DNA of 64,000 nucleotides from an uncultured Erysipelotrichaceae bacterium (lineage in GTDB: Bacteria > Bacillota_I > Bacilli_A > RF39 > UBA660): assembly GCA_902794075.1 (NCBI GenBank), contig CADBGE010000001.1, positions 276,477 through 340,476 on the forward strand, read 5' to 3'. The notes under the pieces were generated by a model. That model was not told where the DNA came from and ran no database searches. It was given only the letters and a program-made list of their open reading frames with translations. A program made the translations under genes and the position numbers. Shown piece by piece: positions 40,888-64,000 of the stretch. Position 1 is the stretch's first letter; the number at the start of each line of letters is the position of its first letter.

Positions 40888-40959
40888 TTATAATTATAAT
40901 ATATAAATAATGTTAAAATATTTTTAATTATACACGAGAATATATTATCAAAAACAATA

Positions 40960-41181: not shown

Positions 41182-41193
41182 AGAAATTGAATC

Positions 41194-41685
41194 ATGAGTA
41201 TACAAAGTCAAATAAATAGATTACAAAATGCAAAGACGGCTTTAAAAACTGCTATAGAAGGTAAAGGTGTAACTGTTCCTAGTAGTACAAAGTTAGATGG
41301 TTATGCTGATTTGGTTGACAGTATTAGTGGAGGAAGTAGTTCATCTGACGGTTGGGCATACTTTTATTATAATGGATGTTATGCTGATGATTTCTCTAGA
41401 GTATATAATTACATTACACAGAGCAATGTTACTCTTGAAATAAATTATTGGTTGGATGCATCTTATACTGGATGGATGCCTAAACAACTTCCAGTAAAAG
41501 CCACTACTAATACTAATTATATCCCAGTATACTTTAGAGCTAAAGCGAATAGTTCAGCTGGAGGTTATTTTCAGTTTGGAACGAACGGGCATATGTGTAA
41601 AGTAACGGTCATGAAATTTGAAGATGTTGATACTTCAATAAATTATATTGGTAAGATAGAAGCTATAAATGGAGGAGCAAGTTAA
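41194..41685 (+). CDS. tail-fibre-like protein
   Basis: 163 aa. The N-terminal IQSQINRLQNAKTALKTAIEGKGVTVPSSTKLDGYADLVDSI is a motif I associate with phage tail-fibre proteins. It lies in the structural cassette. Confidence 0.5.
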   Translation: MSIQSQINRLQNAKTALKTAIEGKGVTVPSSTKLDGYADLVDSISGGSSSSDGWAYFYYNGCYADDFSRVYNYITQSNVTLEINYWLDASYTGWMPKQLPVKATTNTNYIPVYFRAKANSSAGGYFQFGTNGHMCKVTVMKFEDVDTSINYIGKIEAINGGAS

Positions 41686-41738
41686 TAACTAACAACATAA
41701 AAGAACTATCGTAAGTAATTAAAATGTAACATATAACA

Positions 41739-42221
41739 ATGGCAAAATCTGTTAAATTAAAAGATAGAAATAATAATCAAATATTACCTATCACTCGTGC
41801 AACTACTGTTGAAATGAATGATGGAACTAATATGCAAGAGAAGCTAGATTCAATTGAAGATAATATATTAGAAGTTAATTATGATTCAACAAACACTGCA
41901 TTGGTATTTAGGAGCGGTATTGTGAAAACTTATACAATAACTTTGAAAGATGAAAATAAAGTTGTATCGGATATTACTTTAAATGGAACATTATATCAAA
42001 CTAAAGATTTTCCAATGGAAATTAACGAGGGAGATTCGTTGAATGTTTCTATTTTTTGTTATGATACATGTAATTATTCAACAAAAATGTGTGATACTAT
42101 TGTTTCAACATCAGAATCTTTTAGTATACAGAGTGTAAGTGGAAATATAGTAATAACAGTTAAAACAATTTCGCCATCCGGAGGAGATGATCCTGTTAAT
42201 CCTGTTATTCCAAGATCATAA
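41739..42221 (+). CDS. tail-fibre-associated protein (anchor module plus C-terminal domain)
   Basis: 160 aa that shares its N-terminal 55 aa with 40960-41181. Confidence 0.55.
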   Translation: MAKSVKLKDRNNNQILPITRATTVEMNDGTNMQEKLDSIEDNILEVNYDSTNTALVFRSGIVKTYTITLKDENKVVSDITLNGTLYQTKDFPMEINEGDSLNVSIFCYDTCNYSTKMCDTIVSTSESFSIQSVSGNIVITVKTISPSGGDDPVNPVIPRS

Positions 42222-42298
42222 TTAATTATATTACCGTATAAATTTTAAATATAAAATTGAAAATAACGAAGTAAAATAATATAGCATATTCAAAAAAT

Positions 42299-44095
42299 AT
42301 GGCAAATATAGATAAAATAACATTAAGAGGTGTAAATTATTCCATCATTGATTCATCAGTTCCAAGTTATGTAAAAGGTATAACACAAACTGATATAACA
42401 AATTGGAATAATAAGTTAGATTCATTTACTGAAACTGACCCAAGTATTTCATCATACTTAAGAGCTATCACTGAACAAGATATAAGTAATTGGAATAATA
42501 AGTTAGATTCATTTACAGAAACAGATCCAACTGTTCCAAGTCACGTTAAATCTATAACACAACAAAATATTTCAAATTGGAACAGTAAAGTTTCTTATGA
42601 TTCACGTTGGACTGATGCAGCCGTTATTTCCTCACAAGCTATAAATTTAGTAAGTTCAAAAGCAGCCCCGGATTTTGATGAAGGCATTATTTTCAATGAC
42701 ATTAATAAGATATTCACCGGAACCAATTTAAAAAGCACTGTTTCTGGAAATAATACTGATTATAAATTCACACGTGAAGTAAATGGTGATGTTGCTGTGT
42801 TGTCGGATATTCCAGATATTTCAAGTTATGTTTCAAAATCTGAACTTAATTCTGCTGGGTATCTAACTTCATTCACTGAAACAGATCCTACAGTTCCAAG
42901 TCATGTTAAATCTATAACTGAACAAAATATTACTAATTGGAACACAGCTCATACAAATAGTCATACACATAGTAATAAGACAGTTATTGACGGAATTACC
43001 TCAACTGATATTTCAAATTGGAATAGTAAAACAGATAATGTTGGTACAATAACAGGTATCACAATGAATGGCGCAAGCAAAGGTACATCAGGTGTTGTTG
43101 ACTTAGGTACTGTATTGACTGAACATCAATCTCTTTCATCATACGCAACATCTGCAAATTATGATTCATCTACTAAGAAGATATATTTGAAACACGGAAC
43201 AACAACTTTATCTGAGATTGATGCAACAGACTTCATTAAGGATGGTATGGTTGATACAGCATATGTTCAAGGTGCAAACCTGGTAATATCATTTAATACT
43301 GATGCTGGTAAAGAAGCAGTTAATGTTCCTATTTCAGACATATTTAATGCTAATAATTATTATACAAAATCGGAGATTGATAATGCAAGTTATCTACAGT
43401 GGGATGAAAAATCATCAGTGGAACAAAACACTGATACATTAAGTATGAATAGATTATATATAGAAACTTCATCAGATACAGACATTCCGTTAAATGGTCA
43501 CATTGCATTTACTGATAATAATAGATGTTTTAATGGATTTTCAATATGCGATTACCAAGCAGATTATGGAGATAGTGTACGATATTCATTTACTCGAGAT
43601 GTAAAAGGCGATGTTGCTATAACAAATGATATAACTAAGGCTATCAATAGTTATGTTATTTCTGCATCATATCTTCAATCATTTACTGAAACAGATCCTA
43701 CCGTTCCCACACATGTTAAATCTATAACACAACAGAACATAAATGATTGGAATAATAAGTTAAGTGCAGAAACACAACTCAGTAAGGGTACAACTACTGG
43801 TTCAGGCAATGCTGTAACAGATATATCAGTTTCTAATCATCAGATAACATTAACGAAGGGTTCAACATTTCTTACTGCTCATCAAGATATAAAGACTATA
43901 AATAATCAGACAATAACTGGCACTGGCAATGTTACGATTAATGAACTTCCAACTGTGTCATCATCCGATAATGGAAAAGTTCTTCAGGTTGTAAATGGCA
44001 TATGGACCCTTGTGACTCCATTACATCTATATAGTGGAACAGGAACACCTGATAATTCACAAGGAAATAATGGTGACCTTTATATGCAAATTTAA
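42299..44095 (+). CDS. tail fibre protein with FTETDP(T/S)(V/I)(P/S)(S/T)(H/Y)(V/L)(K/R)(S/A)IT..(N/D)I..WN repeats
   Basis: 598 aa with four full copies of the roughly 28-aa repeat (aa about 42, 71, 199, 467) and one degenerate copy (GITSTDISNWNSK). Confidence 0.65.
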   Translation: MANIDKITLRGVNYSIIDSSVPSYVKGITQTDITNWNNKLDSFTETDPSISSYLRAITEQDISNWNNKLDSFTETDPTVPSHVKSITQQNISNWNSKVSYDSRWTDAAVISSQAINLVSSKAAPDFDEGIIFNDINKIFTGTNLKSTVSGNNTDYKFTREVNGDVAVLSDIPDISSYVSKSELNSAGYLTSFTETDPTVPSHVKSITEQNITNWNTAHTNSHTHSNKTVIDGITSTDISNWNSKTDNVGTITGITMNGASKGTSGVVDLGTVLTEHQSLSSYATSANYDSSTKKIYLKHGTTTLSEIDATDFIKDGMVDTAYVQGANLVISFNTDAGKEAVNVPISDIFNANNYYTKSEIDNASYLQWDEKSSVEQNTDTLSMNRLYIETSSDTDIPLNGHIAFTDNNRCFNGFSICDYQADYGDSVRYSFTRDVKGDVAITNDITKAINSYVISASYLQSFTETDPTVPTHVKSITQQNINDWNNKLSAETQLSKGTTTGSGNAVTDISVSNHQITLTKGSTFLTAHQDIKTINNQTITGTGNVTINELPTVSSSDNGKVLQVVNGIWTLVTPLHLYSGTGTPDNSQGNNGDLYMQI

Positions 44096-44153
44096 TGGAT
44101 TTCGTTAATGTACAAAAACTATAATATAATTTAATTATAATGTAATTTAGCTA

Positions 44154-46043
44154 ATGAGTAGATTTATAATAGATAGTACACAAACATCAACATTTGTTCC
44201 ATCGGCATATGACAGAGATAATAGTGTTGTTCATTCAGTTGGTAATGCAAATAATGGATTAAAAGGCGTTGATAGCTCAAACACTTCTGCTTCATTATAT
44301 TTACCGACTGGAGCGAGTGCCGAAATGTGGGCATATTATAATTTTGATTGTTCAACTATACCGCAAGATGCAGTTATAAATAATGTGACTTGTAGATTCC
44401 ATGGTTATCCTGGTGCTTCAAGCAGCGCTTATCAATCTAATAACTATTATCAAGTTTCAATAGGGACCAATAAATTAACTCCAACTACTGGATTTTCAAG
44501 CTCAAGCACTATATATACTAATACACCGAATCATGAATTTACGAGATCTGAACTTGATAATATAAAAATATGTATTCATTCTCAGAGAAATAGTTCAACA
44601 TACACTACATCAACATCTGTTCGTGTTGTATTTTACGGTGCAGAACTAAATGTAAATTATAGTCTCGGTCATTATGAATATGATGTTAATGTTGTTTCAA
44701 ACACTGATTTTGCAACAGTATCACAATCAGAAAATGTTGTTGATGAAGGAAATTCAATAACCATTCCAATCACAATAAGAAACATCAATAATATTATAAT
44801 AGAAGATAATAATATTGACATAAAATCACAACTTGTTCATCAATCAGGTAATATATATAATTACACAATATCAAATGTTAATTATGACCATGATATTGTA
44901 ATTAATAGAACAACTATTGATATAGAACCTGAAGATCCAGAATATAATTATTACACATTATCGTTATCATGTATAAATGGTGAAACAACACCAGATGGTG
45001 GAGCATATCGTTATGTTGAAGGAAGTAATCAGACAATTGAGATAGTGCCGAATGACACTATAATTACAATAGCACGAGATAATGGTGTTGATATTTCTTC
45101 ACAATTACAGCAAGGACGACAAATATATTCATGTGAATATACATCTGCTACTGTATCAGGTGCAACATATTCATTTACTCAAAATTCTGATGGATGGTTC
45201 ACTAATCAGAATACTTCGTCATCTCAAAGAAATACATATGCAATGATTAGGATTAATCTTAATCTTGAGGTTGAGTGTTTAGTAACCATAAAATATTATG
45301 GCAATTTACAAGGTGCGACAGATACGTTTAGTATTGGCAATATTGATGAAAATGTTGCTGTTAATAATTCAACAAATGGTTCTAAGATGTACACGACTTC
45401 ACCAAGAAATACAATTGACAACCCAAATACAACAAGTTTTGCAGATATACAGGGCGAACATTTTATCATATTAAAATTAAGACGTCCAAATAACTCAAGC
45501 TCAACATCAGTTACACATACCATAAATTTTAAAATAGAAATTACCCCATTAGTTCCAACTCATACTTGGATATATAATTTATCTAATATTCAAGATAATC
45601 ATTCGTTAATGTTTGTTTTTGGTGATGTAGAATATTATACCATTAACACAACAACTGATGTTACTAATGCTAAATTTTTACCATACGGAAATTGGGTATC
45701 TCTCCCGAATGAAACATATAAGTTGGTCATAATTCCTGATAACATTACACAAAAATTTCAAATAACGGATAATGATGTTGATGTTACGAATTATATGGAA
45801 TATCATGAATTTACTGATGAGAACAATCAGTTATCAGTAAATTATGTATATAAAATATTTAATGTCAATTCAAATCATAATCTTGTCATATCTAATCAAA
45901 CAAATCAATCTTCAAAATATATCAAAATGAATGGATCTTGGAACCTCATTAAGAATATATATGTAAAACAAAATGGAGAATGGATATTGAACAATGATTA
46001 TGATATAACATCAATTAATAAGATATCTTTTCTTAATTCTTAA
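44154..46043 (+). CDS. tail fibre / receptor-binding candidate
   Basis: 629-aa Ser/Thr/Asn-rich ORF, last gene of the fibre cassette. No specific family recognised. Confidence 0.5.
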   Translation: MSRFIIDSTQTSTFVPSAYDRDNSVVHSVGNANNGLKGVDSSNTSASLYLPTGASAEMWAYYNFDCSTIPQDAVINNVTCRFHGYPGASSSAYQSNNYYQVSIGTNKLTPTTGFSSSSTIYTNTPNHEFTRSELDNIKICIHSQRNSSTYTTSTSVRVVFYGAELNVNYSLGHYEYDVNVVSNTDFATVSQSENVVDEGNSITIPITIRNINNIIIEDNNIDIKSQLVHQSGNIYNYTISNVNYDHDIVINRTTIDIEPEDPEYNYYTLSLSCINGETTPDGGAYRYVEGSNQTIEIVPNDTIITIARDNGVDISSQLQQGRQIYSCEYTSATVSGATYSFTQNSDGWFTNQNTSSSQRNTYAMIRINLNLEVECLVTIKYYGNLQGATDTFSIGNIDENVAVNNSTNGSKMYTTSPRNTIDNPNTTSFADIQGEHFIILKLRRPNNSSSTSVTHTINFKIEITPLVPTHTWIYNLSNIQDNHSLMFVFGDVEYYTINTTTDVTNAKFLPYGNWVSLPNETYKLVIIPDNITQKFQITDNDVDVTNYMEYHEFTDENNQLSVNYVYKIFNVNSNHNLVISNQTNQSSKYIKMNGSWNLIKNIYVKQNGEWILNNDYDITSINKISFLNS

Positions 46044-47150: not shown

Positions 47151-47159
47151 TTATATTTG

Positions 47160-47231
47160 CAGGTCGTGAAGGAATCAAACCTCCATCTTCGGGTTTGGAG
47201 TCCGACATAATAATCATTATACCAACGACCT
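47160..47231 (-). tRNA. tRNA-Trp(CCA)
   Basis: Manual cloverleaf: acceptor AGGTCGT/ACGACCT, anticodon arm TCGGA-CTCCAAA-CCCGA (A31-C39 mismatch), T arm GGAGG-TTTGATT-CCTTC, G73. Confidence 0.7.
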
Positions 47232-47239
47232 ATTTTTTG

Positions 47240-47315
47240 AGTCCCAGACAGGATTCGAACCTGTGATGAATACGATTTTGCAGATCGTCGCCTTCGTCCT
47301 CTCAGCCACTGAGAC
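47240..47315 (-). tRNA. tRNA-Cys(GCA)
   Basis: Acceptor GTCTCAG/CTGGGAC, anticodon arm ACGAT-CTGCAAA-ATCGT, T arm ACAGG-TTCGAAT-CCTGT, and the U73 discriminator expected for Cys. Confidence 0.75.
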
Positions 47316-47331
47316 TTTTTATAAAATCTTG

Positions 47332-47404
47332 GGAGTTATACGGGAATCGCACCCGTGACAACAGAACCACAATCTGTTATGTTAACTACTACACTAATAA
47401 CTCC
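47332..47404 (-). tRNA. tRNA-His(GTG)
   Basis: Acceptor GAGTTAT/ATAACTC, an encoded G-1 opposite C73 (His identity feature), anticodon arm ACAGA-TTGTGGT-TCTGT, T arm ACGGG-TGCGATT-CCCGT. Confidence 0.75.
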
Positions 47405-47413
47405 ATATATTTG

Positions 47414-47486
47414 TCTTTCTACAAGGATTCGAACCCTGACCATGAAATTCGTAGTTTCGTATGCTAATCCATTACACCATAGAAAG
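47414..47486 (-). tRNA. tRNA-Arg(ACG)
   Basis: Acceptor CTTTCTA/TAGAAAG, anticodon loop CTACGAA, T arm CAGGG-TTCGAAT-CCTTG, A73. Confidence 0.75.
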
Positions 47487-47747: not shown

Positions 47748-48263
47748 TTAGAACATGAATGATTGTGCCTTAGGATTTGTTCTAATGAAAGCATCACATA
47801 AAAACTTTACAAATTCATTTACATTGTTCAATTTAATGTAATGCCGTTGTGATGATTTGTTGCTAACCAATGTGCCAACATTTTCAGGCAGTCTATCTAT
47901 GAAAAACTTATAAAATCTATCATTGTCTTTCTTATAAGCAAAATCATATAATACTTCAATCACATCATCGGAATCATTTTCATCATACATAAATTTAGGA
48001 TATCTAATCTGTATTGATGATGTAATCCAATTTGAATTTTGTGGTCCAGCCTTTTCAAAATCTTTAGAATTTATATATAATATATCAAAATGCACACTGT
48101 CAATTTGAGGTAGTAATACAGACATATTTGAAATATTTTTTTCTTTTATGTAATCATTAATCATTGAAGCAATCTTAAAGAAATCTTGCTTAGTTTTCAA
48201 CATTGTAGTTCCTTCATTAAACATTTTTTCAGAACCGTTTAAATATTCTTGTAAACTTTTCAT
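47748..48263 (-). CDS. hypothetical protein with CTS-like leader
   Basis: 171 aa with N-terminus MKSLQEYLNG. Confidence 0.55.
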   Translation of the reverse strand: MKSLQEYLNGSEKMFNEGTTMLKTKQDFFKIASMINDYIKEKNISNMSVLLPQIDSVHFDILYINSKDFEKAGPQNSNWITSSIQIRYPKFMYDENDSDDVIEVLYDFAYKKDNDRFYKFFIDRLPENVGTLVSNKSSQRHYIKLNNVNEFVKFLCDAFIRTNPKAQSFMF

Positions 48264-48310
48264 AAAACCGTTTTTTTTTTGTCTTATATATTAAAAATAA
48301 TCAACAATTC

Positions 48311-53177: not shown

Positions 53178-53282
53178 ATATTTAAATTGATCATCTTTAT
53201 ATTTTTAATATATAAAAAGTCCTTACCAAAATTTAAATTTTGATAAGTTTATCATAGCATAAATAAAATTATAATAAAAGAT

Positions 53283-54893
53283 ATGAGAACATTTGATGAG
53301 TTCTTAAAAAATCATTATAAATCTAAAAATGTAAGCATTCTTAGTGAGGATGATTCACAAAAAAATAGTGATAATATAAATATAGATAATAATGTATCTG
53401 AAGAAATTGTTGTAGCAAATGATGTAAAGGATACTGAAAATATAGTTGATAAAATGGATAAAAAATCTGGATATTTTTTCAACAATATTATATTTTTCAC
53501 AAATAGTAGAGATCCCTCAAAAAATAAGACGTTAAAAAATCTTGAAGATGCTGTAAAAGGAACTGATATTACTATATATACGTTTGTTGCTGAAGAAGTT
53601 GATTATAAGGCAACAGAAAAAAGTATTAGTATAAAAGACAGTAAAACAAAGTTAAAGATCGATAAACAGTCAAACATTGATACTATTGTTATTGTTCGTC
53701 TTGGAGCACAAGATTCAGAACTTTGTGTTGAATGCATAAAAGAATTACAACAGTGGGGATTATTTGTTCTTAATCCAATTCAGAATGCAAAGAAAGCTTC
53801 TAATAAATATTCATCAGCTGTTCTTATGGAAAGATATGGAATTCCACAGCCAAAGTTTACATTGCTTACGAAGAATGACATTGAAAAAGGTGATGAAAGT
53901 CTTTCAAAAAAATTAAAGAATATTTATTCGGACATTGGAGATGATGAGAAAGCCGATAAGAAAAAGGAATATGTTGTAAAATTGTTAAATGGTCATGGTG
54001 GTACAGGTGTATTTATGTGCAACGGAAAGACAATATTAAGTATCCTTCAAGCTATGTTTGCTGTTGATGAAGAACTTGAACTTCTCTGTCAGAAGAAAGA
54101 AGAAGCTGACGGAGGAGACATACGGGTTCATGTTCTTACAATGAGAACAAAGCAGATGATACTTGCTCAGATGAAGCGAGTTAAGATATCTGGAGATTTC
54201 CGTTCAAATGTTTCTTTAGGTGCAACCGCAGAAAAAGTTGAATTAACTAAAGAACAAGAAGATATTGCATTGAAGGTTGCAAAGATTTCTGGTATGCCGT
54301 GGTGTGCAGTTGACATAATGCCATTGGTTAAAGATTCTAATCCAGAAATTGGCGATAATGTTGTACTTGAATATAATTCATCCCCAGGTACAGAAGGAAT
54401 ATCTGATGTAATTGATGAAAACTTTGTTAAGATTCTTCTTGATAATATAAATGACATTAATGAACTTGTTCTTTATCCAAAATCTATTGGATACATAGAG
54501 AATATTACATTTAAGTTCAATGATGATGATGCACCGGTTACAATGGAAGCAAAACTTGATACAGGTAACGGTGCATATGCTTCAACAATAGGTTGTGAAA
54601 AGGTTGAAGTTAAAGATGATGAGGTTGTTGCCACACTTAATGACAAGGAATATCATTTTAAGAAACATGGATCATCAAATCCTCGAGTAGGTCAGGTAAC
54701 AGAATCAAGAACTACAGTTATTGTTCCTGAGATTCAGATTGGAACTCGTAAATTGCTTGATGTTGAATTTGCTCTTGTTGACAATAGAAAGAAGTCAACA
54801 AAGATACTACTTAATAGAGATATATTATCTAAGATGGCTTACATGATTAACCCAGCTCAGAAAAAAACATTAGATGAAAATAAAAAAATATGA
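53283..54893 (+). CDS. RimK-type ATP-grasp ligase fused to a C-terminal retropepsin-like (Zn_protease/DUF785-like) domain, with CTS-like leader
   Basis: 536 aa. LNGHGGTGVF, GGDIRVHVL, SGDFRSNVSLGATAE and CAVDIM...LEYNSSPG parallel E. coli RimK blocks as I recall them. C-terminal MEAKLDTGNGAYASTIG resembles the AKxDTGA signature of the RimK-associated protease-like domain. The N-terminus is MRTFDEFLKN. Confidence 0.7.
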   Translation: MRTFDEFLKNHYKSKNVSILSEDDSQKNSDNINIDNNVSEEIVVANDVKDTENIVDKMDKKSGYFFNNIIFFTNSRDPSKNKTLKNLEDAVKGTDITIYTFVAEEVDYKATEKSISIKDSKTKLKIDKQSNIDTIVIVRLGAQDSELCVECIKELQQWGLFVLNPIQNAKKASNKYSSAVLMERYGIPQPKFTLLTKNDIEKGDESLSKKLKNIYSDIGDDEKADKKKEYVVKLLNGHGGTGVFMCNGKTILSILQAMFAVDEELELLCQKKEEADGGDIRVHVLTMRTKQMILAQMKRVKISGDFRSNVSLGATAEKVELTKEQEDIALKVAKISGMPWCAVDIMPLVKDSNPEIGDNVVLEYNSSPGTEGISDVIDENFVKILLDNINDINELVLYPKSIGYIENITFKFNDDDAPVTMEAKLDTGNGAYASTIGCEKVEVKDDEVVATLNDKEYHFKKHGSSNPRVGQVTESRTTVIVPEIQIGTRKLLDVEFALVDNRKKSTKILLNRDILSKMAYMINPAQKKTLDENKKI

Positions 54894-55690
54894 AGTCGTT
54901 AAAACATTACATAAAATCTGATAAATCATATTTAATTTCATTATCTGAAAAACTGTTAATCAATAAGAACTATGACATTTATAATTATCGTCCAACAACG
55001 AGAGAAGAACTAAAGGCTTCAATACAAGAACACTATAATAATGATATATATGATTTAAATGATATAGATGTATCTAATATAACTGACTTTAGTTCACTTT
55101 TTTACAGAGATAAAAATACAGGAAACAAAGATTTTAACATTAGTGATTGGAATGTAAGCAATGGTATGAATTTTTCTTTGATGTTTTATGAATGTAAAGA
55201 ATTTAATTTTGATATAAGTAAATGGAATGTTAGTAATGGCATTGATTTTTCACATATGTTTTCTGAATGTCACAAATTTAATTGTAACTTGAGTGATTGG
55301 GACGTAAGTAATGGCAAGAATTTTTCATATATGTTTAATGAGTGTGAAAACTTTAATCAAAACTTAAAATATTGGAATGTAAGTAAATGTAAAGATTTTT
55401 CTGGTATGTTCAAAAAGTGCTATAAATTTAATTCAAATTTAAGTAAGTGGAATGTAAGTAATGGAGAAGATTTTTCTTCAATGTTTTATAATTGTCAAGA
55501 ATTTAATTCTAACTTAAGTAAATGGGATGTGAGTAGTGGAGAAGATTTTGCATGGATGTTTGGATATTGTAAAAAATTTAATTCAGACATTAGTAAATGG
55601 AATATATCTGATAAATCAATTTTATATATTAATCAGATGTTTTATGGCTGTCCTATAGATGATAAATATAAGCCAAAGGGAGTACAATGA
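54890..55690 (+). CDS. DUF285 / BspA-type repeat protein with CTS-like leader
   Basis: 266 aa with seven tandem units of about 25 aa of F..MF..C..FN..(I/L)S.W(N/D)VS.G..; 4-nt overlap with the upstream gene. The N-terminus is MKSLKHYIKS. Confidence 0.7.
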   Translation: MKSLKHYIKSDKSYLISLSEKLLINKNYDIYNYRPTTREELKASIQEHYNNDIYDLNDIDVSNITDFSSLFYRDKNTGNKDFNISDWNVSNGMNFSLMFYECKEFNFDISKWNVSNGIDFSHMFSECHKFNCNLSDWDVSNGKNFSYMFNECENFNQNLKYWNVSKCKDFSGMFKKCYKFNSNLSKWNVSNGEDFSSMFYNCQEFNSNLSKWDVSSGEDFAWMFGYCKKFNSDISKWNISDKSILYINQMFYGCPIDDKYKPKGVQ

Positions 55691-55791: not shown

Positions 55792-55871
55792 ATATATTTG
55801 TATGAACTATCCTCTTGTTAATAATTTCAAAATATTTTTAATATATAATAAATTTTAATAGAAATCAACAC

Positions 55872-56747
55872 ATGCCTACTAAAAAAATTAAAAATTATGA
55901 CATATACTTTGGCGGATATGTTCAACGAAGTAAAAGCATTAAGAAAATTTCATTTGATAATTCATCTTTAATATTATATAAAGGCGACGAATACGATTTA
56001 AATTTTACTGTATATCCTAATGATGCTTTTTATAGTGAAATTGAATGGGCATCAAGCGATGAAAAAGTCGTTAGTATTGATGAAGACGGACATATTGTTG
56101 CCTTAAAAGGTGGTAAAGCTACTATATCTATTACAATAAACAATATTGTAGCAAGATGCTTTATTACAGTTCGTGAAGTAATTCATTTTGAAGATCCATT
56201 AGTAAAAAGTATTCTTGTTCGCAATTATGATTTTGATGGTGATGGAGAGATTTCATATATAGAGGCTGCACGTGTAACATCTATACCATTTCCAATGTTT
56301 ACAGGCATGCCAATACAATCATTTGATGAACTTTCATATTTTAAAAATGTTAAAACAATTGCACCACATGCTTTTGATTCTTGTGATAAGTTAACAAGCA
56401 TATCATTTCCTGCAGGATTAGAAAAAATAAATAAAAATGCATTTTCATATTGTAATTCATTAACTGAAATTATGATTACACCAAATGTGAAAAGTATTGG
56501 TACAAACGCTTTTTCTGATTGTGCAAATTTAAAGGTTGCTTATATAAATAGTAATATTCCCCCAAAGAATGGTAACAAAATTCTTGACAGATGTCCAAAT
56601 TTAGATAGAATAATTGTTCCAGGCGAATATGTTGATGATTACCTTAATGCTATAAATTGGGGTATGCTTAATGATGAAGAATATTTATACTATTCATATA
56701 TAATTATACAATGTTTTGATTATACGTTTGACTTCTTTTTATCATGA
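55872..56747 (+). CDS. Big_2 Ig-like domain plus BspA-type LRR_5 protein
   Basis: 291 aa. N-terminal SLILYKGDEYDLNFTVYPNDA...WASSDEKVVSIDEDGHIVALKGGKATISI is Big_2-like. The C-terminal half has AFDSCDKLTSISFPAGLEKINKNAFSYCNSLTEIMITPNVKSIGTNAFSDC repeats. Confidence 0.65.
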   Translation: MPTKKIKNYDIYFGGYVQRSKSIKKISFDNSSLILYKGDEYDLNFTVYPNDAFYSEIEWASSDEKVVSIDEDGHIVALKGGKATISITINNIVARCFITVREVIHFEDPLVKSILVRNYDFDGDGEISYIEAARVTSIPFPMFTGMPIQSFDELSYFKNVKTIAPHAFDSCDKLTSISFPAGLEKINKNAFSYCNSLTEIMITPNVKSIGTNAFSDCANLKVAYINSNIPPKNGNKILDRCPNLDRIIVPGEYVDDYLNAINWGMLNDEEYLYYSYIIIQCFDYTFDFFLS

Positions 56748-58720
56748 TTAGAGAACTTATAAACATAAGAAATCTTCCGTATGTTGTAGAACTATACGAT
56801 GCATATGATGACAATATTGTTCATTATGAACAGTTTGTTATGTTTCGTAACTATGACATATATAATGATGTATTTGCTGATAAAGAATTATATTTTGTTG
56901 ATAAAAATGTATGGGATTCAAATGGACCAAATGGAAATATAATTTGGCCAATATGCGAAGAACTTGGGTCTGGATTTGGAACAGAATATAAATATTTTAA
57001 TGGATTTTTTTCTGAATATGGACTTACAAATGGATATGATGTAAATATACTATATAATAAATTTAAAAATGTTGCTAATGTAAGATGCAACAAAATAAGA
57101 ATATATAGACCAACGGTTAAGGACACAAATGATATGATTATTCATGTCGACAATTTTATAAATAATATTCATATTCATTATTTATGTACTACATATAATT
57201 CATGCCCAATCAATTCAAACAATGAATTTAAATTAAACAATGTTACTTATTCAGAATACATTGAATTTTATGTTCCTAATGTATATGATTTATTTGATAA
57301 TGATAAACTAAATAATCATATTGGATGTTATTTTAAAGAAAATCTTAATGTTGTTGAGTTCTGTTCAAATGTTAAGGAGGATATGCTGTTTATTGATGAA
57401 GATGAAAAACATGTATTTTTTCCATTAGACATATTTTCATTACCATACGAATTAAAAGAAAAAGAGTATAATGGCGAAGTATATACAGTAAAGCATTATA
57501 AATCAGTTGCTAAATCAATTGAAAATAACTACATATCATATCCTGTAAACATAACATTATGGTCATATGATGAGATACTAAATAACAAATTTATAAAGGA
57601 TGATTTTTGGGGTGAAGCATCTGCAACATTTATAAAAGATCTTAAATTTACATTATCAGCAAATCTTGGTTTTGTAAATAATCATGTGTCCGTTATTGCA
57701 AAGTTTAATTTTCCAAATCGTGATGAATTTGAGAATGCCTATAAAGATGATGTAGACATTACACCAGTCTGTCATGCATATATGAAGTATAATAATGTTG
57801 TAGAAAATTATTATGATAATGTTGAATATGAAATGATTGAAAAATATAGAGAAGAACTTAATGTAACTCCTCTTAATGACGAAGATAAAATAATCGTTAC
57901 TGACTATTTTATAAAACGTGGACAAACAGTAAATGTGGATAATGATAAGGAATTACGAGAAAAATATATAGAAATGAAAATTCAGTCTCTATATGATGAA
58001 CTTAATGAAGATTCAGACACTAAACTAAAATTCATCGGATTTAGAGTTATAATAGGTTCAGATCCAAATTTTAAACATATCATATATGACAACAATGTTA
58101 AGATAAAATTTACGGAACTTGATGATTTTTCATTCAACATAAATGATATGTTCGAAAGTTGGAATAATGTATATGACGGTTATTATGCAGTTAAAGTAAT
58201 ATTTGTTGATAGATTATTAGGAACTGAAATAATGTCTAATTCCGTTATTTTATCTCCTGAATGGATTAAGTATATGATTAATTCAACAAACGAACGCATC
58301 ATTAATTTTGATAACATTAATAAAGATAATGAAATTGATAATGATATGGAATATAATTTTATAGAAAATATTCGTTGCATAGTAAATAAGAAACGGGATG
58401 ATAAAAATAAAATTATTCGCGGAAATAATTCTCCAAAAATATTATATAAACCAATATTTTATCGTGTCTCAAATTTACAAAATGTAAGAATAAGAAGAAA
58501 TGTAAAGCAGAAGATTGGAATTAATCTTGCTGAATATATGACAAAGGTTGAGACATTTAAACTTCTTCTTAATGGCAATGAATATATTGAATATGGACGT
58601 GCTGATGCATTTGTAATATTTGAAATATCAGGAAATAACTTTTCATCATCAAATGGAGCATATGACATACTAAACCAAGATGATGAATATATTTCAAGTG
58701 GCGCATATTCATTAATGTAA
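56744..58720 (+). CDS. large virion structural protein (baseplate/tail candidate)
   Basis: 658-aa ORF immediately upstream of the gp25-like and J-like genes. No family recognised. Confidence 0.5.
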   Translation: MIRELINIRNLPYVVELYDAYDDNIVHYEQFVMFRNYDIYNDVFADKELYFVDKNVWDSNGPNGNIIWPICEELGSGFGTEYKYFNGFFSEYGLTNGYDVNILYNKFKNVANVRCNKIRIYRPTVKDTNDMIIHVDNFINNIHIHYLCTTYNSCPINSNNEFKLNNVTYSEYIEFYVPNVYDLFDNDKLNNHIGCYFKENLNVVEFCSNVKEDMLFIDEDEKHVFFPLDIFSLPYELKEKEYNGEVYTVKHYKSVAKSIENNYISYPVNITLWSYDEILNNKFIKDDFWGEASATFIKDLKFTLSANLGFVNNHVSVIAKFNFPNRDEFENAYKDDVDITPVCHAYMKYNNVVENYYDNVEYEMIEKYREELNVTPLNDEDKIIVTDYFIKRGQTVNVDNDKELREKYIEMKIQSLYDELNEDSDTKLKFIGFRVIIGSDPNFKHIIYDNNVKIKFTELDDFSFNINDMFESWNNVYDGYYAVKVIFVDRLLGTEIMSNSVILSPEWIKYMINSTNERIINFDNINKDNEIDNDMEYNFIENIRCIVNKKRDDKNKIIRGNNSPKILYKPIFYRVSNLQNVRIRRNVKQKIGINLAEYMTKVETFKLLLNGNEYIEYGRADAFVIFEISGNNFSSSNGAYDILNQDDEYISSGAYSLM

Positions 58721-58744
58721 AGTAAAATATATATAAAAACAATT

Positions 58745-59098
58745 ATGACAGATTTTGCTCTTGATGATTCTGTGTTTATACAATCAAATATTTCTGCAGC
58801 ATTACAAGAATTAGACATTCTTTTTAATACTGAAAATACTGAATTAATAGGATATCCTACTTATGGAGTAAATTTTGAACAATTTTTATGGCAATTAAGT
58901 CCATCTCCAAATGCTCTTAAGACTTATATAGAAGAACATATTCAGAAATATACTTTTTTCTGTAAAGATTTTGATGTAGTCGTTAATGTTAATGTTATAG
59001 ATGGTGAATATAGAAATATATATAATGTTATGATAATATTACGTACTGATCCAAAATCTAAACAAGCTGCGGGATTTAGAATCTATCAACTACGTTGA
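58745..59098 (+). CDS. baseplate wedge protein, gp25/GpW-like
   Basis: 117 aa. ALQELDILFNTENTELIGYPTYGVNFEQFLWQ fits the gp25/W pattern (I..IL.T..GE....P.FG..L..L.F). The size is typical. Confidence 0.55.
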   Translation: MTDFALDDSVFIQSNISAALQELDILFNTENTELIGYPTYGVNFEQFLWQLSPSPNALKTYIEEHIQKYTFFCKDFDVVVNVNVIDGEYRNIYNVMIILRTDPKSKQAAGFRIYQLR

Positions 59099-59130
59099 TG
59101 CTTATGAAATAATATTAACTTAGATAATAT

Positions 59131-60825
59131 ATGAAACTATTTAATGTAATAGAAACATCTTTTGATAGATATGATGAAACTATAAAAAAATATTTATCAA
59201 ATGTATTTGGAAGCCTTGGAATGCAATATTCTCACTCCCAAATATTTGGTGCTGTGTATGATGGCATAAGAGGCATTTTACAGAATGCAATGTTCTATAT
59301 AGAAGATGCTTTAACAGAACAAAACATATTTACAGCAACTCGACAAAAATCAGTATATTCATTAGCAAAAATATCCGGTTATGAACCTTATTATGGTTGT
59401 GCAGCCACAGGAACAATCATTGCACAAATAAATGCTAATGTTGAACTTGAAAATAAAACTACAAAAATATTTATACAGAACTATTCAAGAATTGTCAATC
59501 AAAGAACCGGCGTAACTTATTTAATAGTATTGCCTACAGAATATTATGTAATAGATCTTTCAAAACCAATTGTTAAGCATGAGTTCAAAGTTGTTCAGGG
59601 ACGACTGGAAAATGACCAATATGTTGCATCTGGAAGACCATGGGAAACTGTAAGTATAGATACAAATGAGTTATGGGATAAAGAATATATGACAGTTAAA
59701 GTTAATGGCAAGGAATATACTCAATGTGTAAGTGTCTATGATATGACTCCGGGAGGTGAAGAATATGTTGCAAGAACTGGCTTTGACGGAAAAATAGAAA
59801 TAATGTTTGGTAATGGAACATTTGGTAATATAGTGCCAGGTGGTTCAACAATAGACATTCAAATGGTTAAACATATTGGTGCATCAGGAAATGTCATTAA
59901 TAATGAGGCTGGAATATTTGCCATGCAGTCATCAGGATATGACACAATAGGAAATGGTGTAAATGTAAATGCTTATATGACGTTTAAACTTCAAAATCCA
60001 ATATGTGGTGGTACTAATTCTGATTCCGCTAATTTTATAAAAACAATAATTGGATATAATTCACGTTCATTAGTACTTGCTTCTGAGGACAACTTCAAAT
60101 TATTCTTTAAAAGATTTTCATTTATTGGATATGTGAATTGTTGGTCAGAAAAAAATTCAATGTGTATAACAGCAACATGTCTAAGTAATAAAGCACAACA
60201 AGTAAAAGGCGTTGATGAATATTATGATCTTAATCCTGATGATCTATTACTTAATGATGAACAAAAGATTATGATTCAGGAAACATTAAGTAATTCAAAA
60301 AGAACATTTGCTGGTGTTACATTAAAATTTCAAGATCCTATCATTAGACGATATGCAATAATATGTTATGTCAAAATAAGCAATATATATGACAAGGAAA
60401 CTGTTACGATAGGAATTAAATCAACACTTGCTAATTATTTCATGAAGTTGTTCAACAATGTTCATTTTATTCCAAAGTCAGATTTAATTAAACAAATATT
60501 GGATAACAATAGTTCAATTAAGTCTATAGATATAGACATCATTTCTGAATTAGCAGAACAGACATATTATAATGGTTATTATAATAAATATGAACTACGA
60601 CTTGTAAATGGTGAATATAAATATGTTCCTATAAAAGTGATGTATGAACCTGGAACATTCCCGGGGCTTGATGATTTTGGAAATATAGTTCTTAGTTCAA
60701 AACTTGAAATTCCAGTATTACATGGTGGATTTAATTATTATATGAATAAGACAAATGATAAAAAGGTTGGATTAAGTCAAAATAATTGTATGAGGATTCA
60801 AACTGTACAGGTTTATTTCATATAA
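59131..60825 (+). CDS. baseplate J/gp6-like protein (tentative)
   Basis: 564-aa ORF directly after the gp25-like gene, matching the conserved gp25-J synteny. No motif was verified. Confidence 0.4.
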   Translation: MKLFNVIETSFDRYDETIKKYLSNVFGSLGMQYSHSQIFGAVYDGIRGILQNAMFYIEDALTEQNIFTATRQKSVYSLAKISGYEPYYGCAATGTIIAQINANVELENKTTKIFIQNYSRIVNQRTGVTYLIVLPTEYYVIDLSKPIVKHEFKVVQGRLENDQYVASGRPWETVSIDTNELWDKEYMTVKVNGKEYTQCVSVYDMTPGGEEYVARTGFDGKIEIMFGNGTFGNIVPGGSTIDIQMVKHIGASGNVINNEAGIFAMQSSGYDTIGNGVNVNAYMTFKLQNPICGGTNSDSANFIKTIIGYNSRSLVLASEDNFKLFFKRFSFIGYVNCWSEKNSMCITATCLSNKAQQVKGVDEYYDLNPDDLLLNDEQKIMIQETLSNSKRTFAGVTLKFQDPIIRRYAIICYVKISNIYDKETVTIGIKSTLANYFMKLFNNVHFIPKSDLIKQILDNNSSIKSIDIDIISELAEQTYYNGYYNKYELRLVNGEYKYVPIKVMYEPGTFPGLDDFGNIVLSSKLEIPVLHGGFNYYMNKTNDKKVGLSQNNCMRIQTVQVYFI

Positions 60826-60908: not shown

Positions 60909-62504
60909 TTAATATTTTGCATTTCTATTTGCACGTCTTGCCTGATTCCTCATTTGGTCAGATATCATCTTTCTTACATCCTCCTCTGTAAAGTCAGGAT
61001 CATCCGCACAAGTTTCAAAAATCTTTGCACAAATTGCAAACGTACGAATAGAAATTTCCATGTCTTCACCATTTTGAGACATTTCCTTAAGGTAATCATA
61101 TGCCTTAATCTTTGAACGACTTGACAAATGCTCGGGATCAATGGCAGGCATAATTCGTTTTACAATATACAACAAATCCTCATTTGTAAAATTAATGTCC
61201 ATCACAAAAGAACGACCTCTAAGAGCAGTGTCCAATGCCCCAACATTATAATTTGTGATAATAATTATTGAACCATTATAGAACATCTTTTTAGGAATTG
61301 GGTCTCCATCATCATCAAGCAACCTTCCTGCAACGCCGTACATAACGAGACGTCCCTCATCATCAGTTGTTGAATCCAATGCACCTTTAAGAATGTTGAT
61401 ACAATCCTCTGGTGCGCGAGGTCCAACGAGAGAATCAGCGTCATCAATAACAACAATGTCACCCTTTGCACGATATTGATAAAGTGCCATATAAAGTTGT
61501 CGTGGAGAACAACGACCTTTGATTGTGTACAAATTTGTTCCTTCTTTATATCCTGATGCTTTAAGTTGTTGCATTACGTTATATGTTTTACCTACACCAG
61601 GAGCACCACAAAGAATAACAGATGGATTAATTCCTCTTGCGACCATACTTACATATTTACGCATTTTCTTAAAAACAAATTCAGGGTCCTCTCGTTCAGC
61701 ATCAAGTTCATCTTGTTGCTTTTTCATTATCTCATCAATTTCTGCAATAACCTGAACATTTTTCTTTATTGCGGCCTTTAACTCAGGAAGTGTATTTGCA
61801 CCGCCCTTTACAGCATTCCAAACTTCTTTAACTTCATCAAGTAATCTTTTATATGTTTCCTTTGCCTTAGCTGAATCATTTTTGTTTAATCTTGCATTAT
61901 CTTTTTCACTTGACTTCATTTTTGCAAAATCTCTTGCACTTGAAATGTTTTTGGATTCGATCATAAATGATTTTTTAATTAACGATTCAGATAAATTATT
62001 TGTTATATAATATGGTAACGCACCAACAAAAAATTCAAATGATTTGCATTCTTTAACAAATATTTCCTTGCCTAATTTTTTGATTTCATTTGTAGTTATG
62101 TCAATGCTATCTGAATTAATAATTGTCCATATAACAGGAAGAAAATATACTATGCTAGACCCAAGTGTGTATATAGAAAGATCAGTCTTAACAGGTTTAT
62201 CTGAAAACAATATATTGTAGTTACTAAAAAAGTCTATAGAATATACTTCATTTGATTCTGATGATCTTAAGAAATTCAAACTAAACATTTTTATATTTGT
62301 ATTATTGACAAGAAAATACTTTGTGATCATATATTCATTATCGACTTTCGTTTTTTCTGTGCCAACAATATGTGTTATGTGCTTTTTAGTATGCTTATTT
62401 AAACTATTGCATATTAACGAAAAAACTTTATCCATATCATCATTCTTAAAGCCTTCTCTAATGATAGTTTTTCGTTTTTCTATAAATTCCTTATATGATA
62501 TCAT
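60909..62504 (-). CDS. AAA+ ATPase with large unknown N-terminal domain and CTS-like leader
   Basis: 531 aa with Walker A LCGAPGVGKTY, Walker B DIVVIDDADSL and N-terminus MISYKEFIEK. Confidence 0.7.
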   Translation of the reverse strand: MISYKEFIEKRKTIIREGFKNDDMDKVFSLICNSLNKHTKKHITHIVGTEKTKVDNEYMITKYFLVNNTNIKMFSLNFLRSSESNEVYSIDFFSNYNILFSDKPVKTDLSIYTLGSSIVYFLPVIWTIINSDSIDITTNEIKKLGKEIFVKECKSFEFFVGALPYYITNNLSESLIKKSFMIESKNISSARDFAKMKSSEKDNARLNKNDSAKAKETYKRLLDEVKEVWNAVKGGANTLPELKAAIKKNVQVIAEIDEIMKKQQDELDAEREDPEFVFKKMRKYVSMVARGINPSVILCGAPGVGKTYNVMQQLKASGYKEGTNLYTIKGRCSPRQLYMALYQYRAKGDIVVIDDADSLVGPRAPEDCINILKGALDSTTDDEGRLVMYGVAGRLLDDDGDPIPKKMFYNGSIIIITNYNVGALDTALRGRSFVMDINFTNEDLLYIVKRIMPAIDPEHLSSRSKIKAYDYLKEMSQNGEDMEISIRTFAICAKIFETCADDPDFTEEDVRKMISDQMRNQARRANRNAKY

Positions 62505-62627
62505 AAAGTAAAATATTATGTATAATTAAAAATATTCATATATATTTGATGATATAAAAATGTGGCATAAAAAATGGGAACATATGTTCCCACTTAATAA
62601 TATGATTATAGAATTATTTTAATTGGA

Positions 62628-64000
62628 TTATCCACATCTTGACCAACCACAGTCAATGCAATGTATGCAACCATTCTCACGAATAAGCTTACCACCACAG
62701 TCTGGACATTTTTCTCCTTCAAGAACTTCATCCTTTTCATACTTACGAAGTATACGAACCATTGCTGATGTAAAGCTTGTGATATTGTCATCAACTTTCT
62801 GAGCAGTCTTAATAATATATTTTAGATTTGCTCCAGTACGCATTAGCATTGATGAATATAATGCTGTCGCAAGTTCCTCGGTTGTAAGCTTAGAACTGAT
62901 GTTCTCAATAACTATATTTTCAGATTCAAACTTATATACTGACTTCTTTATCTTAGTAATAGTTCCTTTATGCTGAGGTATTATTTTATTATTTTCAGAT
63001 CTATATACAAATATTTCATACGGCTTATTCTTATATAATCCAACCATTACATAGAATACTTCACCCTTAACCTTTGTTGAATAAAAATCTGCAGGAAGTG
63101 TCTTAGGACGTTTAGGAGCGTTCACATAACTTTCAAATTTGTCATCTTCCTTTTTCTGTTCTTTCTTTATCATAATACCTTCACGAGAACCGTCACGATA
63201 TACTGTGATGCCCTTTAGTCCGTTTCTCCAAGCTTCCATGTAAATGTTACTTACTTCTTCCTCAGTCACATCATTTGGAAGATTGACAGTAGAACTGATT
63301 GAATGTGTAATAAGATACTTCTGAACAATTCCTTGAACTTCAACACGTTTTTGCCAATCAATGTCCTGAGCACATGAACCATACCATGGTGACTGCTTAT
63401 AGATCTCTTCCCATTCCTTTTCTGTGAGTTCATCAAACTTTGAGAGCAGTTCAGGCATATTTGCTTCAGCCCATTTCTTTAGCTGTGGATGAACAACGAC
63501 AAATTCTGTAAAGTTAATGCCAAGCTTGTCAGTGTAGTCAATCCTATCTTCTGATGTAACGCATTTGCGACGACGAACATAATATGGCATAAATACTGGC
63601 TCAATTCCTGATGAAGTCTGAGTTAACATTGAGATTGTTCCTGTAGGTCCTGCTGTTGTGAATGAAATATTACGACGACCATTGTTCTTCATCTGCTCGT
63701 ATCGTCCAGGATATTCACTGTATATGAATCTAAACCATTCATTGAGATATGGCGTACCCCATTCATCTTTTATATTATTGTTTGTTTCAAGTTCTTTATC
63801 ATAATCTGGAAAAGTTCCACGTTCAAGAGCCATGTCAGTCTGACAGTCAAGAACAGCACTCATCATAAGCTTACAAACCTTCTCAATGAATTCATTTGAT
63901 TCTTTAGTACAAAACTTATATCCCATTGCTGCACACATATCTGACATTGCAGTAAATTCTAATCCGCAACGACGACCATTTTTGCCTTTTTCTAAAATTC
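62628..64000 (-). CDS. nrdJ: ribonucleotide reductase large subunit, class II (NrdJ-like), N-terminus outside the window
   Basis: TTAGPTGTISMLTQTSSGIEPVF is the conserved RNR active-site finger region. The C-terminal CPDCGGKL...CIHCIDCGWSRCG zinc-ribbon/redox tail is typical of NrdJ. The frame stays open upstream of the track Met at 63947 to the window edge (...GRRCGLEFTAMSDM). Confidence 0.7.
   Translation of the reverse strand, partial: ILEKGKNGRRCGLEFTAMSDMCAAMGYKFCTKESNEFIEKVCKLMMSAVLDCQTDMALERGTFPDYDKELETNNNIKDEWGTPYLNEWFRFIYSEYPGRYEQMKNNGRRNISFTTAGPTGTISMLTQTSSGIEPVFMPYYVRRRKCVTSEDRIDYTDKLGINFTEFVVVHPQLKKWAEANMPELLSKFDELTEKEWEEIYKQSPWYGSCAQDIDWQKRVEVQGIVQKYLITHSISSTVNLPNDVTEEEVSNIYMEAWRNGLKGITVYRDGSREGIMIKKEQKKEDDKFESYVNAPKRPKTLPADFYSTKVKGEVFYVMVGLYKNKPYEIFVYRSENNKIIPQHKGTITKIKKSVYKFESENIVIENISSKLTTEELATALYSSMLMRTGANLKYIIKTAQKVDDNITSFTSAMVRILRKYEKDEVLEGEKCPDCGGKLIRENGCIHCIDCGWSRCG

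Follow-up and report, generated by a model that had tools for sequence, protein, structure and literature searches.

Why should six otherwise unrelated phage proteins begin with nearly the same ten amino acids? The question is raised by a stretch of 64,000 nucleotides (contig CADBGE010000001.1, positions 276,477 to 340,476; 29% G+C and ~105-110 plausible genes), referred to below as the window. A preliminary description of this DNA had likened the shared peptide, here called the leader, to the capsid-targeting sequence (CTS) of bacteriophage T4. In T4, head proteins enter the core of the prohead via the CTS, and the internal proteins of T-even phages are diverse apart from it (PMC3012670, PMC5694885); it is found on the internal proteins IPI, IPII and IPIII, on Alt, gp24 and gp67 (Mullaney and Black, 1996, as cited in PMC5694885; also PMC3012670). 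The best explanation, and the one towards which we lean, is that the leader serves as a capsid-targeting and processing tag of the T4 type, the use of which has widened greatly in this phage lineage.

The leader peptide in the window and in related phages

The six open reading frames (ORFs) have exactly the coordinates and first ten residues given in the preliminary description, and the start codon of each is the most upstream one available in that ORF. Four are members of a canonical leader family, M-K-x-[LI]-x-[EQ]-[YF]-I-x-E-[SAG]. These encode a PRTase-like protein (16005-16832, minus strand; MKPLNAYIKE followed by S, at 16803-16832), an acidic protein of 541 amino acids (36982-38607, plus strand; MKNIDEYIIE, at 36982-37011), a protein of 171 amino acids (47748-48263, minus strand; MKSLQEYLNG, at 48234-48263) and a DUF285 repeat protein (54890-55690, plus strand; MKSLKHYIKS, at 54890-54919). 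The other two carry conserved variants of the leader: a RimK-type ATP-grasp ligase with a C-terminal DUF785 (retropepsin-like) domain (53283-54893, plus strand; residues 1-11, MRTFDEFLKNH, at 53283-53315) and an AAA+ ATPase (60909-62504, minus strand), in which the leader-like N-terminus is longer (residues 1-17, at 62454-62504) and ends in I-x-E17 followed by G. The leader has no hydrophobic or signal-peptide character and is best described as a portable peptide of ~10-17 residues, predicted to form a short amphipathic helix.

The core pattern derived from T4, ^M..[LIFY].E[YF][IL], matches 4 of 105 window N-termini, and the looser pattern of the preliminary description matches precisely the six named ORFs among the same 105. 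Column and within-peptide shuffles gave 0.01-0.08 expected matches, those for the core pattern being 0.03-0.08, and none of 5000 shuffles reached either observed count; the leader pattern was also absent from all 396 internal Met positions in the window. A position matrix, iterated and trained on related loci of the jumbo-phage clade, separated the window N-termini into two groups, with scores of 20.0 for 36982-38607, 19.1 for 47748-48263, 16.4 for 16005-16832 and 16.1 for 54890-55690, and 5.3 for the next ORF. The variant leaders of the RimK-type and AAA+ proteins scored 1.6 and -1.3, respectively.

Two details of the preliminary description have to be given up. Its "weak seventh" member, 8024-8629, encodes a WDGH-domain protein and is not among the 16 best matrix scores in the window. 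The remark that four of the six have I/L-x-E within the first 22 residues has to be discounted, since this feature is present in 34% of the window N-termini as a whole; [LI]xE motifs further downstream in the window leaders are likewise not significant. At positions 8-10, I-x-E is found in two of the six, i.e., in 16005-16832 (IKE followed by S) and in 36982-38607 (IIE followed by Q).

A search of IMG/VR for loci with the RimK-type protein as a single query gave nothing, and the loci were found with an alignment as the query. The RimK-type protein has >2000 metagenomic homologues, on contigs of up to 399-435 kb. At the N-terminus of its orthologues, MKTFEEFLxxxY is conserved and is followed by a divergent acidic linker and then by a conserved body. 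A second group of orthologues has another conserved N-terminus, xYNYxDPxxIAEAL or IDYRNASTLERLLEAH (RimK genes in L001-L029; P0048, P0060, P0078 and others), which might be a further targeting module. In the loci, which are non-random parts of the genomes, the leader pattern M-K-x-[LI]-x-[EQN]-[YFS]-I-x-[EG] was present at 74 of 727 ORF starts (10.2%) around RimK (29 loci) and at 36 of 702 (5.1%) around the capsid gene (41 loci). Among internal Met positions of related loci, 4 of 7810 (0.05%) had it, which amounts to a 100-200-fold enrichment at ORF starts.

The leader is attached to many different folds. When residues 21 onward were compared, the 74 leader proteins fell into 54 body families, and the bodies include PRTase, ATP-grasp, DUF285, HAD phosphatase, AAA_33 kinase, MATCAP peptidase, cytidylyltransferase-like, RNA-ligase-like and AAA_5 proteins. 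In the leader codons, residues 4 and 8 show no variation at the second position (2.0 bits), as compared with ~0.7 bits at third positions, and the 45 nucleotides upstream of leader genes are A-rich and otherwise unconserved. Thus, the constraint is on the peptide rather than on the DNA. The leader is also conserved in orthologues. In 120 orthologues of the PRTase-like protein (50-94% identity), MK[ST]LQ[EQ][MIL][LI]KES[FY] is kept, also at 50-58% identity, and a few lack the first ~20 residues. Nearly all of the dozens of DUF285 paralogues in relatives begin MKxLxxYIxEKLxI. In AAA+ orthologues, M-x-x-F-[LK]-x-F-[LV]-E-x-R...[IV]-x-E17-[GS] is kept, and E17 is invariant in an alignment of 25 sequences.

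When IMG/VR was scanned with a DNA pattern for the leader, at least 120 stretches were found. About half of those 120 have no leader ORF, so the DNA pattern gives chance matches too; the remaining stretches include arrays of five to nine leader genes, several of them on the same contig as a RimK gene. Some leader subtypes lack E10, i.e., those with ESIIGRKG or ESILSST and the YLNG and YIKS types of the window. In another subset (L081, L017 and L014; e.g., L081:3020-3532), the leader runs into a conserved acidic stretch, MKTLNDYIIESLLDDEEELIGR or MRSLYESLMDDDDVVLQRAD, which suggests a longer, two-part leader in some subfamilies. Literature searches returned no description of a leader of this kind in huge phages. 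The paper on Jug phages reports similar genomes of 360-402 kb and 27-30% G+C with an annotated prohead protease, and the leader is not mentioned there; those portions of its supplementary text files that were consulted contain no protease or RimK annotation.

Head genes, the predicted cleavage site and the T4 control

A T4-type CTS would be expected together with T4-type head genes. A phmmer search of the RimK loci with T4 head proteins found nothing, and the head module was reached by another route: the DNA-pattern scan led to L141 and L156, in which a gp21-like protease gene lies beside a capsid gene, and a search with the capsid protein then gave the 41 capsid-centred loci. With the L141 protease as a single query, only the protein itself was returned. 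Six of the capsid-centred loci share contigs with RimK orthologues (e.g., L177 with L002, on 435 kb, and L173 with L006, on 376 kb), and the RimK orthologues on contigs with protease and capsid genes are 71-74% identical to that of the window (74% in L002). The gene order in the capsid loci is protease-scaffold fusion (540-580 amino acids), capsid protein, sheath and tube. A 548-amino-acid protein encoded before leader arrays was considered as a portal, wrongly; it is a T4 neck (gp13/14-like) protein.

Along its entire length, the fusion protein is a match to phrog_207, 'head maturation protease' (5e-41), and it also matches a purpose-built hidden Markov model of T4 and marine gp21 at 1e-19 to 1e-24. 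In an hhalign comparison of its N-terminal domain with T4 gp21 and the marine homologues (98.9% probability, E 3e-17), GELEHP is paired with GELNHP of T4 gp21, and ISSRGAG with VSSRGLG; the GELNHP and VSSRG motifs of T4 gp21 are taken here to contain the catalytic His and Ser. The capsid protein matches Pfam Gp23 at 4e-28. Hence, the lack of a prohead protease, which the preliminary description had named as grounds for refutation, is not borne out in close relatives, where a gp21-type protease is encoded beside a gp23-type capsid gene and on contigs that also carry a RimK orthologue. The scaffold part of the fusion is an acidic, coiled-coil, scaffold-like tail with 6-9 tandem NW[VI]xEEFAPEV repeats (L173:8266-9894, L177:8170-9897 and 24 other loci); 0.54 matches to [WYF][IVL]xE[ED] would be expected by chance. 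Pfam mislabels these NW[VI]xEEF repeats as 'Trp_leader1'.

The preliminary description had also asked for processing sites in the capsid protein, and candidate sites are present in the relatives. All 31 of 31 capsid proteins read ...SQYA-x-x-HE-[IVM]-[HYF]-E followed by S, A or G, then a variable linker rich in G, A and P, and then Y-[AT]-T-P-x-N-T-x-G-M-G-N. The predicted site, [IVM]-x-E followed by [SAG], lies where T4 gp23 is cut, and the HE[IVM][HYF]E junction resembles the propeptide junction of T4 gp23, L-T-E followed by A, in position and form. In the leaders of relatives, E10 is present in 244 of 272 unique sequences, and position 11, which was not used in selecting them, is S, A or G in 48%, as compared with 17% in the background. 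A hydrophobic-x-Glu motif of the T4 kind is thus common to the capsid protein, the scaffold and most leaders of the relatives.

In several relatives, tiny proteins of 57-79 amino acids consist of a leader joined directly to [FA]-T-[TA]-P-x-N-T-x-G-M-G-N...GSGD (L007:14801-14992, L006:11883-12056, L001:12630-12830, L011:11571-11759 and L041:1414-1608); none was found in the window. Their post-leader motif equals that of the N-terminal arm of the capsid protein just past its predicted cleavage site; they may act as core peptides or may mimic the capsid arm.

T4 itself served as a control. The sequence given in the preliminary description is correct, as both IPII and IPIII begin with MKTYQEFIAE in the T4 record; the starts of other T4 proteins are MKTFKEFT (IPI), MAKINELLRE (gp24), MEGLIEAIKS (gp67) and MELITELFDE (Alt). 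When a matrix built on jumbo-phage sequences only was applied to 282 T4 ORFs (98% of T4), gp61.1 ranked first, IPIII and IPII came next with 9.1-10.8 bits, and no others scored above 6. The core pattern matches only IPII, IPIII and gp61.1. A generalised pattern, ^M..[LIFY].E[YFLA][ILF].[ES], matches six ORFs (IPII, IPIII, gp67, gp24, Alt and gp61.1) and none of 1076 internal Met positions; its sensitivity is circular, since it was fitted to the known T4 cases, and its specificity is still informative. The sole match outside the known head-core proteins is gp61.1 (NC_000866, 18966-19130; 54 amino acids, hypothetical), which begins with MKTFKEFIKED and is the best matrix match in T4. It is thus a candidate for an internal protein that has escaped notice. 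In marine T4-like contigs, MKLISEYITEG is the start of the gp21 homologue itself.

The position of the leader genes relative to the head genes is also informative. Upstream of the capsid gene, on the head side and often abutting the protease gene, 33 of 320 ORFs are leader genes. The share falls to 3 of 339 ORFs downstream, where the tail genes lie (Fisher p = 3e-8), and no leader is present on sheath, tube, neck or baseplate proteins.

The leader proteins of the window and their surroundings

In the product of 53283-54893, the leader (residues 1-11) is followed by a hypervariable acidic linker (12-61) and a conserved body from about residue 62. The protein matches Pfam RimK (8.9e-24) and NCBIfam rimK_fam (4.5e-32, under the curated cut-off). 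Its AF2 model, which is weak overall (mean pLDDT 57), predicts a helix at 4-11, disorder at 12-61 and a confident all-beta C-terminal domain. Foldseek relates the protein to the RimK structures 7qys and 5zk6 (~2e-8), and the C-terminal domain, which Pfam does not detect, to the DUF785 structure 2pma_A and the aspartic peptidase 9g59_B (TM 0.72-0.73). Because of these last matches, the "RimK-protease fusion" of the preliminary description holds at the level of the fold. In some relatives, a leader-bearing peptidase of the MATCAP type (tubulin tyrosine carboxypeptidase family, Pfam 1e-15) is encoded directly after RimK (L018:11457-12665 and L019:7423-9727); the presence of a glutamate ligase beside a C-terminal peptidase suggests editing of the C-terminal tail of some protein.

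The DUF285 gene (Pfam DUF285, 7.6e-78, three matched stretches) is translationally coupled to the RimK gene, as its ATG overlaps the RimK stop codon (ATGA), and occupies a variable slot downstream of RimK that is empty in the 397 kb relative L032. The acidic protein of 36982-38607 has no match in Pfam, PHROG or NCBIfam, and its C-terminal 105 residues resemble the small leader proteins L009_2544 and L012_2764. For the 171-amino-acid protein, searches with profiles of the Pfam and PHROG type gave no family match. The signature of the PRTase-like protein is weak (Pfam Pribosyltran, 25.7 bits, just under the cut-off; NCBIfam HGPRTase, 1e-8, at the C-terminal motif).

The AAA+ protein matches Pfam AAA (2.4e-8) and phrog_1250. 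Its AF2 model has a helix at 4-10, disorder at 11-16 and a fold that starts at about residue 20, just past E17. A BCS1-like translocase was considered and rejected, as Foldseek returned only generic AAA+ proteins (NSF/Sec18, ORC, clamp loaders) at E >= 1e-3 and no sequence match in the PDB was found. Homologues with 24-27% identity, beginning with MSRLTEFKRYLTEAL, lie near leader genes in the marine T4-like contigs L051, L042, L155 and L060 (35-37% G+C). Since the two are found together in these phages as well, the pairing of the AAA+ ATPase with leader proteins may be old. The marine leader proteins of 248 and 412 amino acids carry no annotation beyond 'hypothetical' in cultured cyanophages and pelagiphages and so add nothing here.

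Most of the leader genes in the window share a promoter-like motif, TATTTTTAAT(N0-1)TATA, which was searched as TATTTTTAATN{0,1}TATA and has five matches in the window, as against 0.11 expected. All five are intergenic and 30-83 nucleotides ahead of a start codon. They lie upstream of the RimK gene with the coupled DUF285 gene (53200-53214, plus strand, TATTTTTAATATATA, 83 nucleotides ahead), of 47748-48263 (48285-48299, minus strand, 36 nucleotides ahead), of the AAA+ gene (62521-62534, minus strand), of a Big_2/LRR gene and the baseplate operon 55872-60825 (55833-55847, plus strand) and of the fibre-like gene cluster 40960-46043 (40919-40932, plus strand). A variant near 36921 lies 61 nucleotides upstream of 36982-38607. 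Including this variant, the motif precedes four of the six leader genes, or five if the DUF285 gene is counted with RimK. Within the window it occurs only between 36 and 63 kb, and the 36 kb minus-strand block is free of it. In relatives, the motif lies ahead of genes for a tail tube protein, a head protein, RimK and a leader protein and is absent upstream of the capsid and sheath genes; thus, it is not a universal late promoter.

Nearby genes of the window encode, besides the Big_2/LRR protein, a protein with a weak gp25-like match and a gp6-like baseplate wedge protein (phrog_219, 2.6e-23). The wedge protein is 20-28% identical to those of Tenacibaculum jumbo phages, Sphingomonas phage PAU and Lak megaphages, and no close relative of the window phage was found among GenBank phages. 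Genes for tRNA-Trp, -Cys, -His and -Arg lie at 47159-47486 (minus strand), just downstream of the leader gene 47748-48263. The ORF at 62628-63947 (minus strand, 439 amino acids) matches only the C-terminal part (profile positions 292-523) of the barrel of the ribonucleotide reductase large subunit; the 397 kb relative has a single ribonucleotide reductase gene of 859 amino acids. The gene may be split or interrupted in the window, although a group I intron was not detected there by Rfam. In two cases, paralogous genes that adjoin each other or lie close together have near-identical N-termini of other kinds, i.e., 8643-9032 and 9052-9453 (MTNICTS[LQ]EQS...) and 40960-41181 and 41739-42221 (MAK[VS]VKLKDR...).

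Proposed capsid targeting and its alternatives

If the leader acts as the T4 CTS does, leader-bearing proteins would be synthesised alongside the structural proteins, and the leader would dock on the prohead scaffolding core, i.e., on the C-terminal part of the protease-scaffold fusion. The gp23-type shell would then close around core and cargo. Subsequently, the gp21-type serine protease would cut after Glu in [ILVM]-x-E, by which the leader would be taken off at E10 (E17 in the AAA+ protein), the capsid propeptide trimmed and the scaffold chopped up. Mature cargo would stay in the head and be ejected with the DNA. Scaffold binding, cleavage, packaging and injection are all drawn here by analogy with T4.

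This route is favoured by the protease and capsid genes in relatives, the site motif, the clustering of leader genes with head genes, the scores of T4 proteins with the jumbo-phage matrix and the specificity of the pattern in T4. The analogy made in the preliminary description gains from these points as well as from the motif itself and the promoter-like motif, and loses from the occurrence of I-x-E at the canonical position in no more than two of the six proteins.

The likeness to the T4 CTS is close. In both cases, a peptide of 10-19 residues is present at the extreme N-terminus of otherwise unrelated proteins, with the same spacing, M-x-x-h-x-E-h-h-x-E (h, hydrophobic), followed by a small residue. 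The RimK-type MKTFEEFL is almost identical to MKTFKEF of IPI and gp61.1, and both systems have a gp21-type protease, a gp23-type shell protein and [ILVM]-x-E sites. However, the leader family is far larger in the jumbo phages (5-10% of ORFs in the sampled loci and arrays of five to nine genes, as against about six proteins in T4), and its bodies are mainly enzymes and DUF285 repeat proteins, whereas the T4 cargo consists of small basic proteins. Moreover, the jumbo-phage protease is fused to a scaffold with NW[VI]xEEF repeats, some leader subtypes lack E10, and the function of the leader is predicted here from sequence.

Other giant phages offer a second comparison. Phages phiKZ, 201phi2-1 and SPN3US have ejection or inner-body proteins with N-terminal propeptides (PMC5694885). 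Like the phages considered here, they are jumbo myoviruses, their heads contain many cargo proteins, including enzymes, and their prohead protease cuts after Glu. Their propeptides, in contrast, are long (often >100 residues) and without a leader consensus in common, and cleavage falls at S/A/G-x-E, whereas the leader is short and T4-like with a strict I-x-E consensus and goes with a gp23-like capsid protein and a protease with a sub-threshold match to Peptidase_S80.

Hypervariable internal-protein loci are reportedly known from T-even phages, where they are said to have been described by Repoila and co-workers in 1994 and by Comeau and Krisch. The slot after RimK and the arrays near neck and protease genes resemble such loci in that unrelated genes in a variable slot share only the leader. 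They differ in scale and gene content, and there is little conservation of the leader at the DNA level here that could drive an exchange of cassettes.

Several observations weigh against capsid targeting. The MKTFEEFL leader is replaced by xYNYxDPxxIAEAL in many RimK orthologues, and K occupies position 11 in a large subfamily of DUF285 proteins. E10 is missing from two of the four canonical leaders in the window (G10 in 47748-48263 and S10 in the DUF285 protein). The gene at 16005-16832 lies in the early-looking minus-strand block and has no promoter-like motif. HAD phosphatase, P-loop kinase and RNA-ligase-like enzymes carry the leader, while their T4 counterparts are cytosolic and unpackaged, and a frequency of 5-10% in the genomes as a whole, rather than in the loci sampled, would imply cargo proteins in very great number. 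The window itself contains neither the protease nor the capsid gene, the closest contigs with these genes carry RimK orthologues of 71-74% identity, and Pfam gives the protease just the sub-threshold Peptidase_S80 match. The RimK homologue of phage YerA41 is labelled 'structural protein' and has no leader. This label was dropped as a lead to packaging; labelling in that record is permissive, and the label is weak because ribonucleotide reductase is also flagged there as particle-associated. Finally, a place in the head is, for every leader protein, deduced from its gene.

How else could the leader be explained? Chance, or the composition of AT-rich coding sequence with its bias towards K, I, Y, N, E, F and L, might be suspected in a genome of 29% G+C, the more so as about half of the 120 DNA-pattern stretches contain no leader ORF. 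It is refuted by the shuffles and the internal-Met controls, to which the conservation of the leader across orthologues adds, and can be considered excluded. A shared N-terminus might also aid expression or folding, as a favoured start of the coding sequence or a nascent helix in a host without Shine-Dalgarno sequences, and might have spread by recombination without any role in targeting. The A-rich upstream regions without a Shine-Dalgarno sequence would suit such a role, as would the many AUG-AAA starts in the window and the tandem arrays of leader genes, in which recombination could spread a 5' cassette. However, it is the amino acids that are conserved (hydrophobic residues at 4, 7 and 8; Glu at 6 and 10), while third codon positions vary and the 5' untranslated region shows no conservation. 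Moreover, highly expressed structural genes do without the leader, the pattern is missing at internal Met positions and in ~90% of genes, and the E10-[SAG] junction fits the site in the capsid protein. An effect on expression therefore appears improbable.

About as improbable is the idea that the leader is a tag for recognition or cleavage by the gp21-type protease or another phage factor and serves control in the cytoplasm, as a zymogen-style mask or a timed degron, without loading into the capsid. It would account for the fit of I-x-E followed by S to the deduced specificity of the protease, for the many bearers whose T4 counterparts are cytosolic enzymes (HAD, kinase, RNA ligase) and for orthologues without a leader. 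Yet, known gp21-type proteases work inside the prohead (PMC5694885), the protease here is fused to the scaffold, leader genes are clustered with head genes rather than evenly spread, and in T4 the pattern marks packaged or core proteins. Hardly more probable, and still unlikely, is targeting to another assembly or compartment of the infected cell, such as baseplate, tail, membrane or replication factory, or to a chaperone, for instance the AAA+ ATPase encoded nearby. The leader genes of the window adjoin baseplate and fibre genes and share the promoter-like motif with them, the AAA+ ATPase is conserved beside leader genes, also in the marine T4-like contigs, and BCS1-like AAA+ translocases have been proposed by others for head cargo in jumbo phages (PMC7824862). 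Against this stand the absence of the leader from sheath, tube, neck and baseplate proteins, its depletion among tail genes, its lack of hydrophobic or signal-peptide character and its close likeness to a head-specific tag of T4.

Capsid targeting is thus preferred, and it has a broader form. A widespread, uncultured clade of AT-rich jumbo phages with a T4-like head core (contigs up to ~440 kb, from gut and rumen-type metagenomes) might load dozens of enzymes into its heads by a readable T4-type code and inject them into the host. The cargo would comprise the RimK-type glutamate ligase with its peptidase domain, a MATCAP-like carboxypeptidase, PRTase, kinases, phosphatases, RNA-ligase-like enzymes, the AAA+ ATPase and large DUF285 families; the injected proteome would be predictable from N-termini, and gp61.1 would be an unrecognised internal protein of T4. 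Taken as a whole, this combined proposal is tentative, and we consider it a little more likely to fail in some part than to hold.

The first phage weapons to enter the host are the proteins carried in the capsid, among them anti-restriction and host take-over factors. To our knowledge, outside a few model phages they can be found only by virion proteomics, which is impossible for uncultured phages. If T4 and the huge phages of gut and rumen do have a capsid-loading tag in common, the proteins injected by thousands of metagenomic phages could be read from their sequences. Unusual injected activities would be indicated, e.g., glutamylation of proteins by RimK and C-terminal trimming by a MATCAP-like peptidase, and a portable tag for loading foreign proteins into large capsids would be at hand. 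The T4 targeting code would then be ancient in the gp23/gp21 lineage, rather than a peculiarity of the T-even phages.

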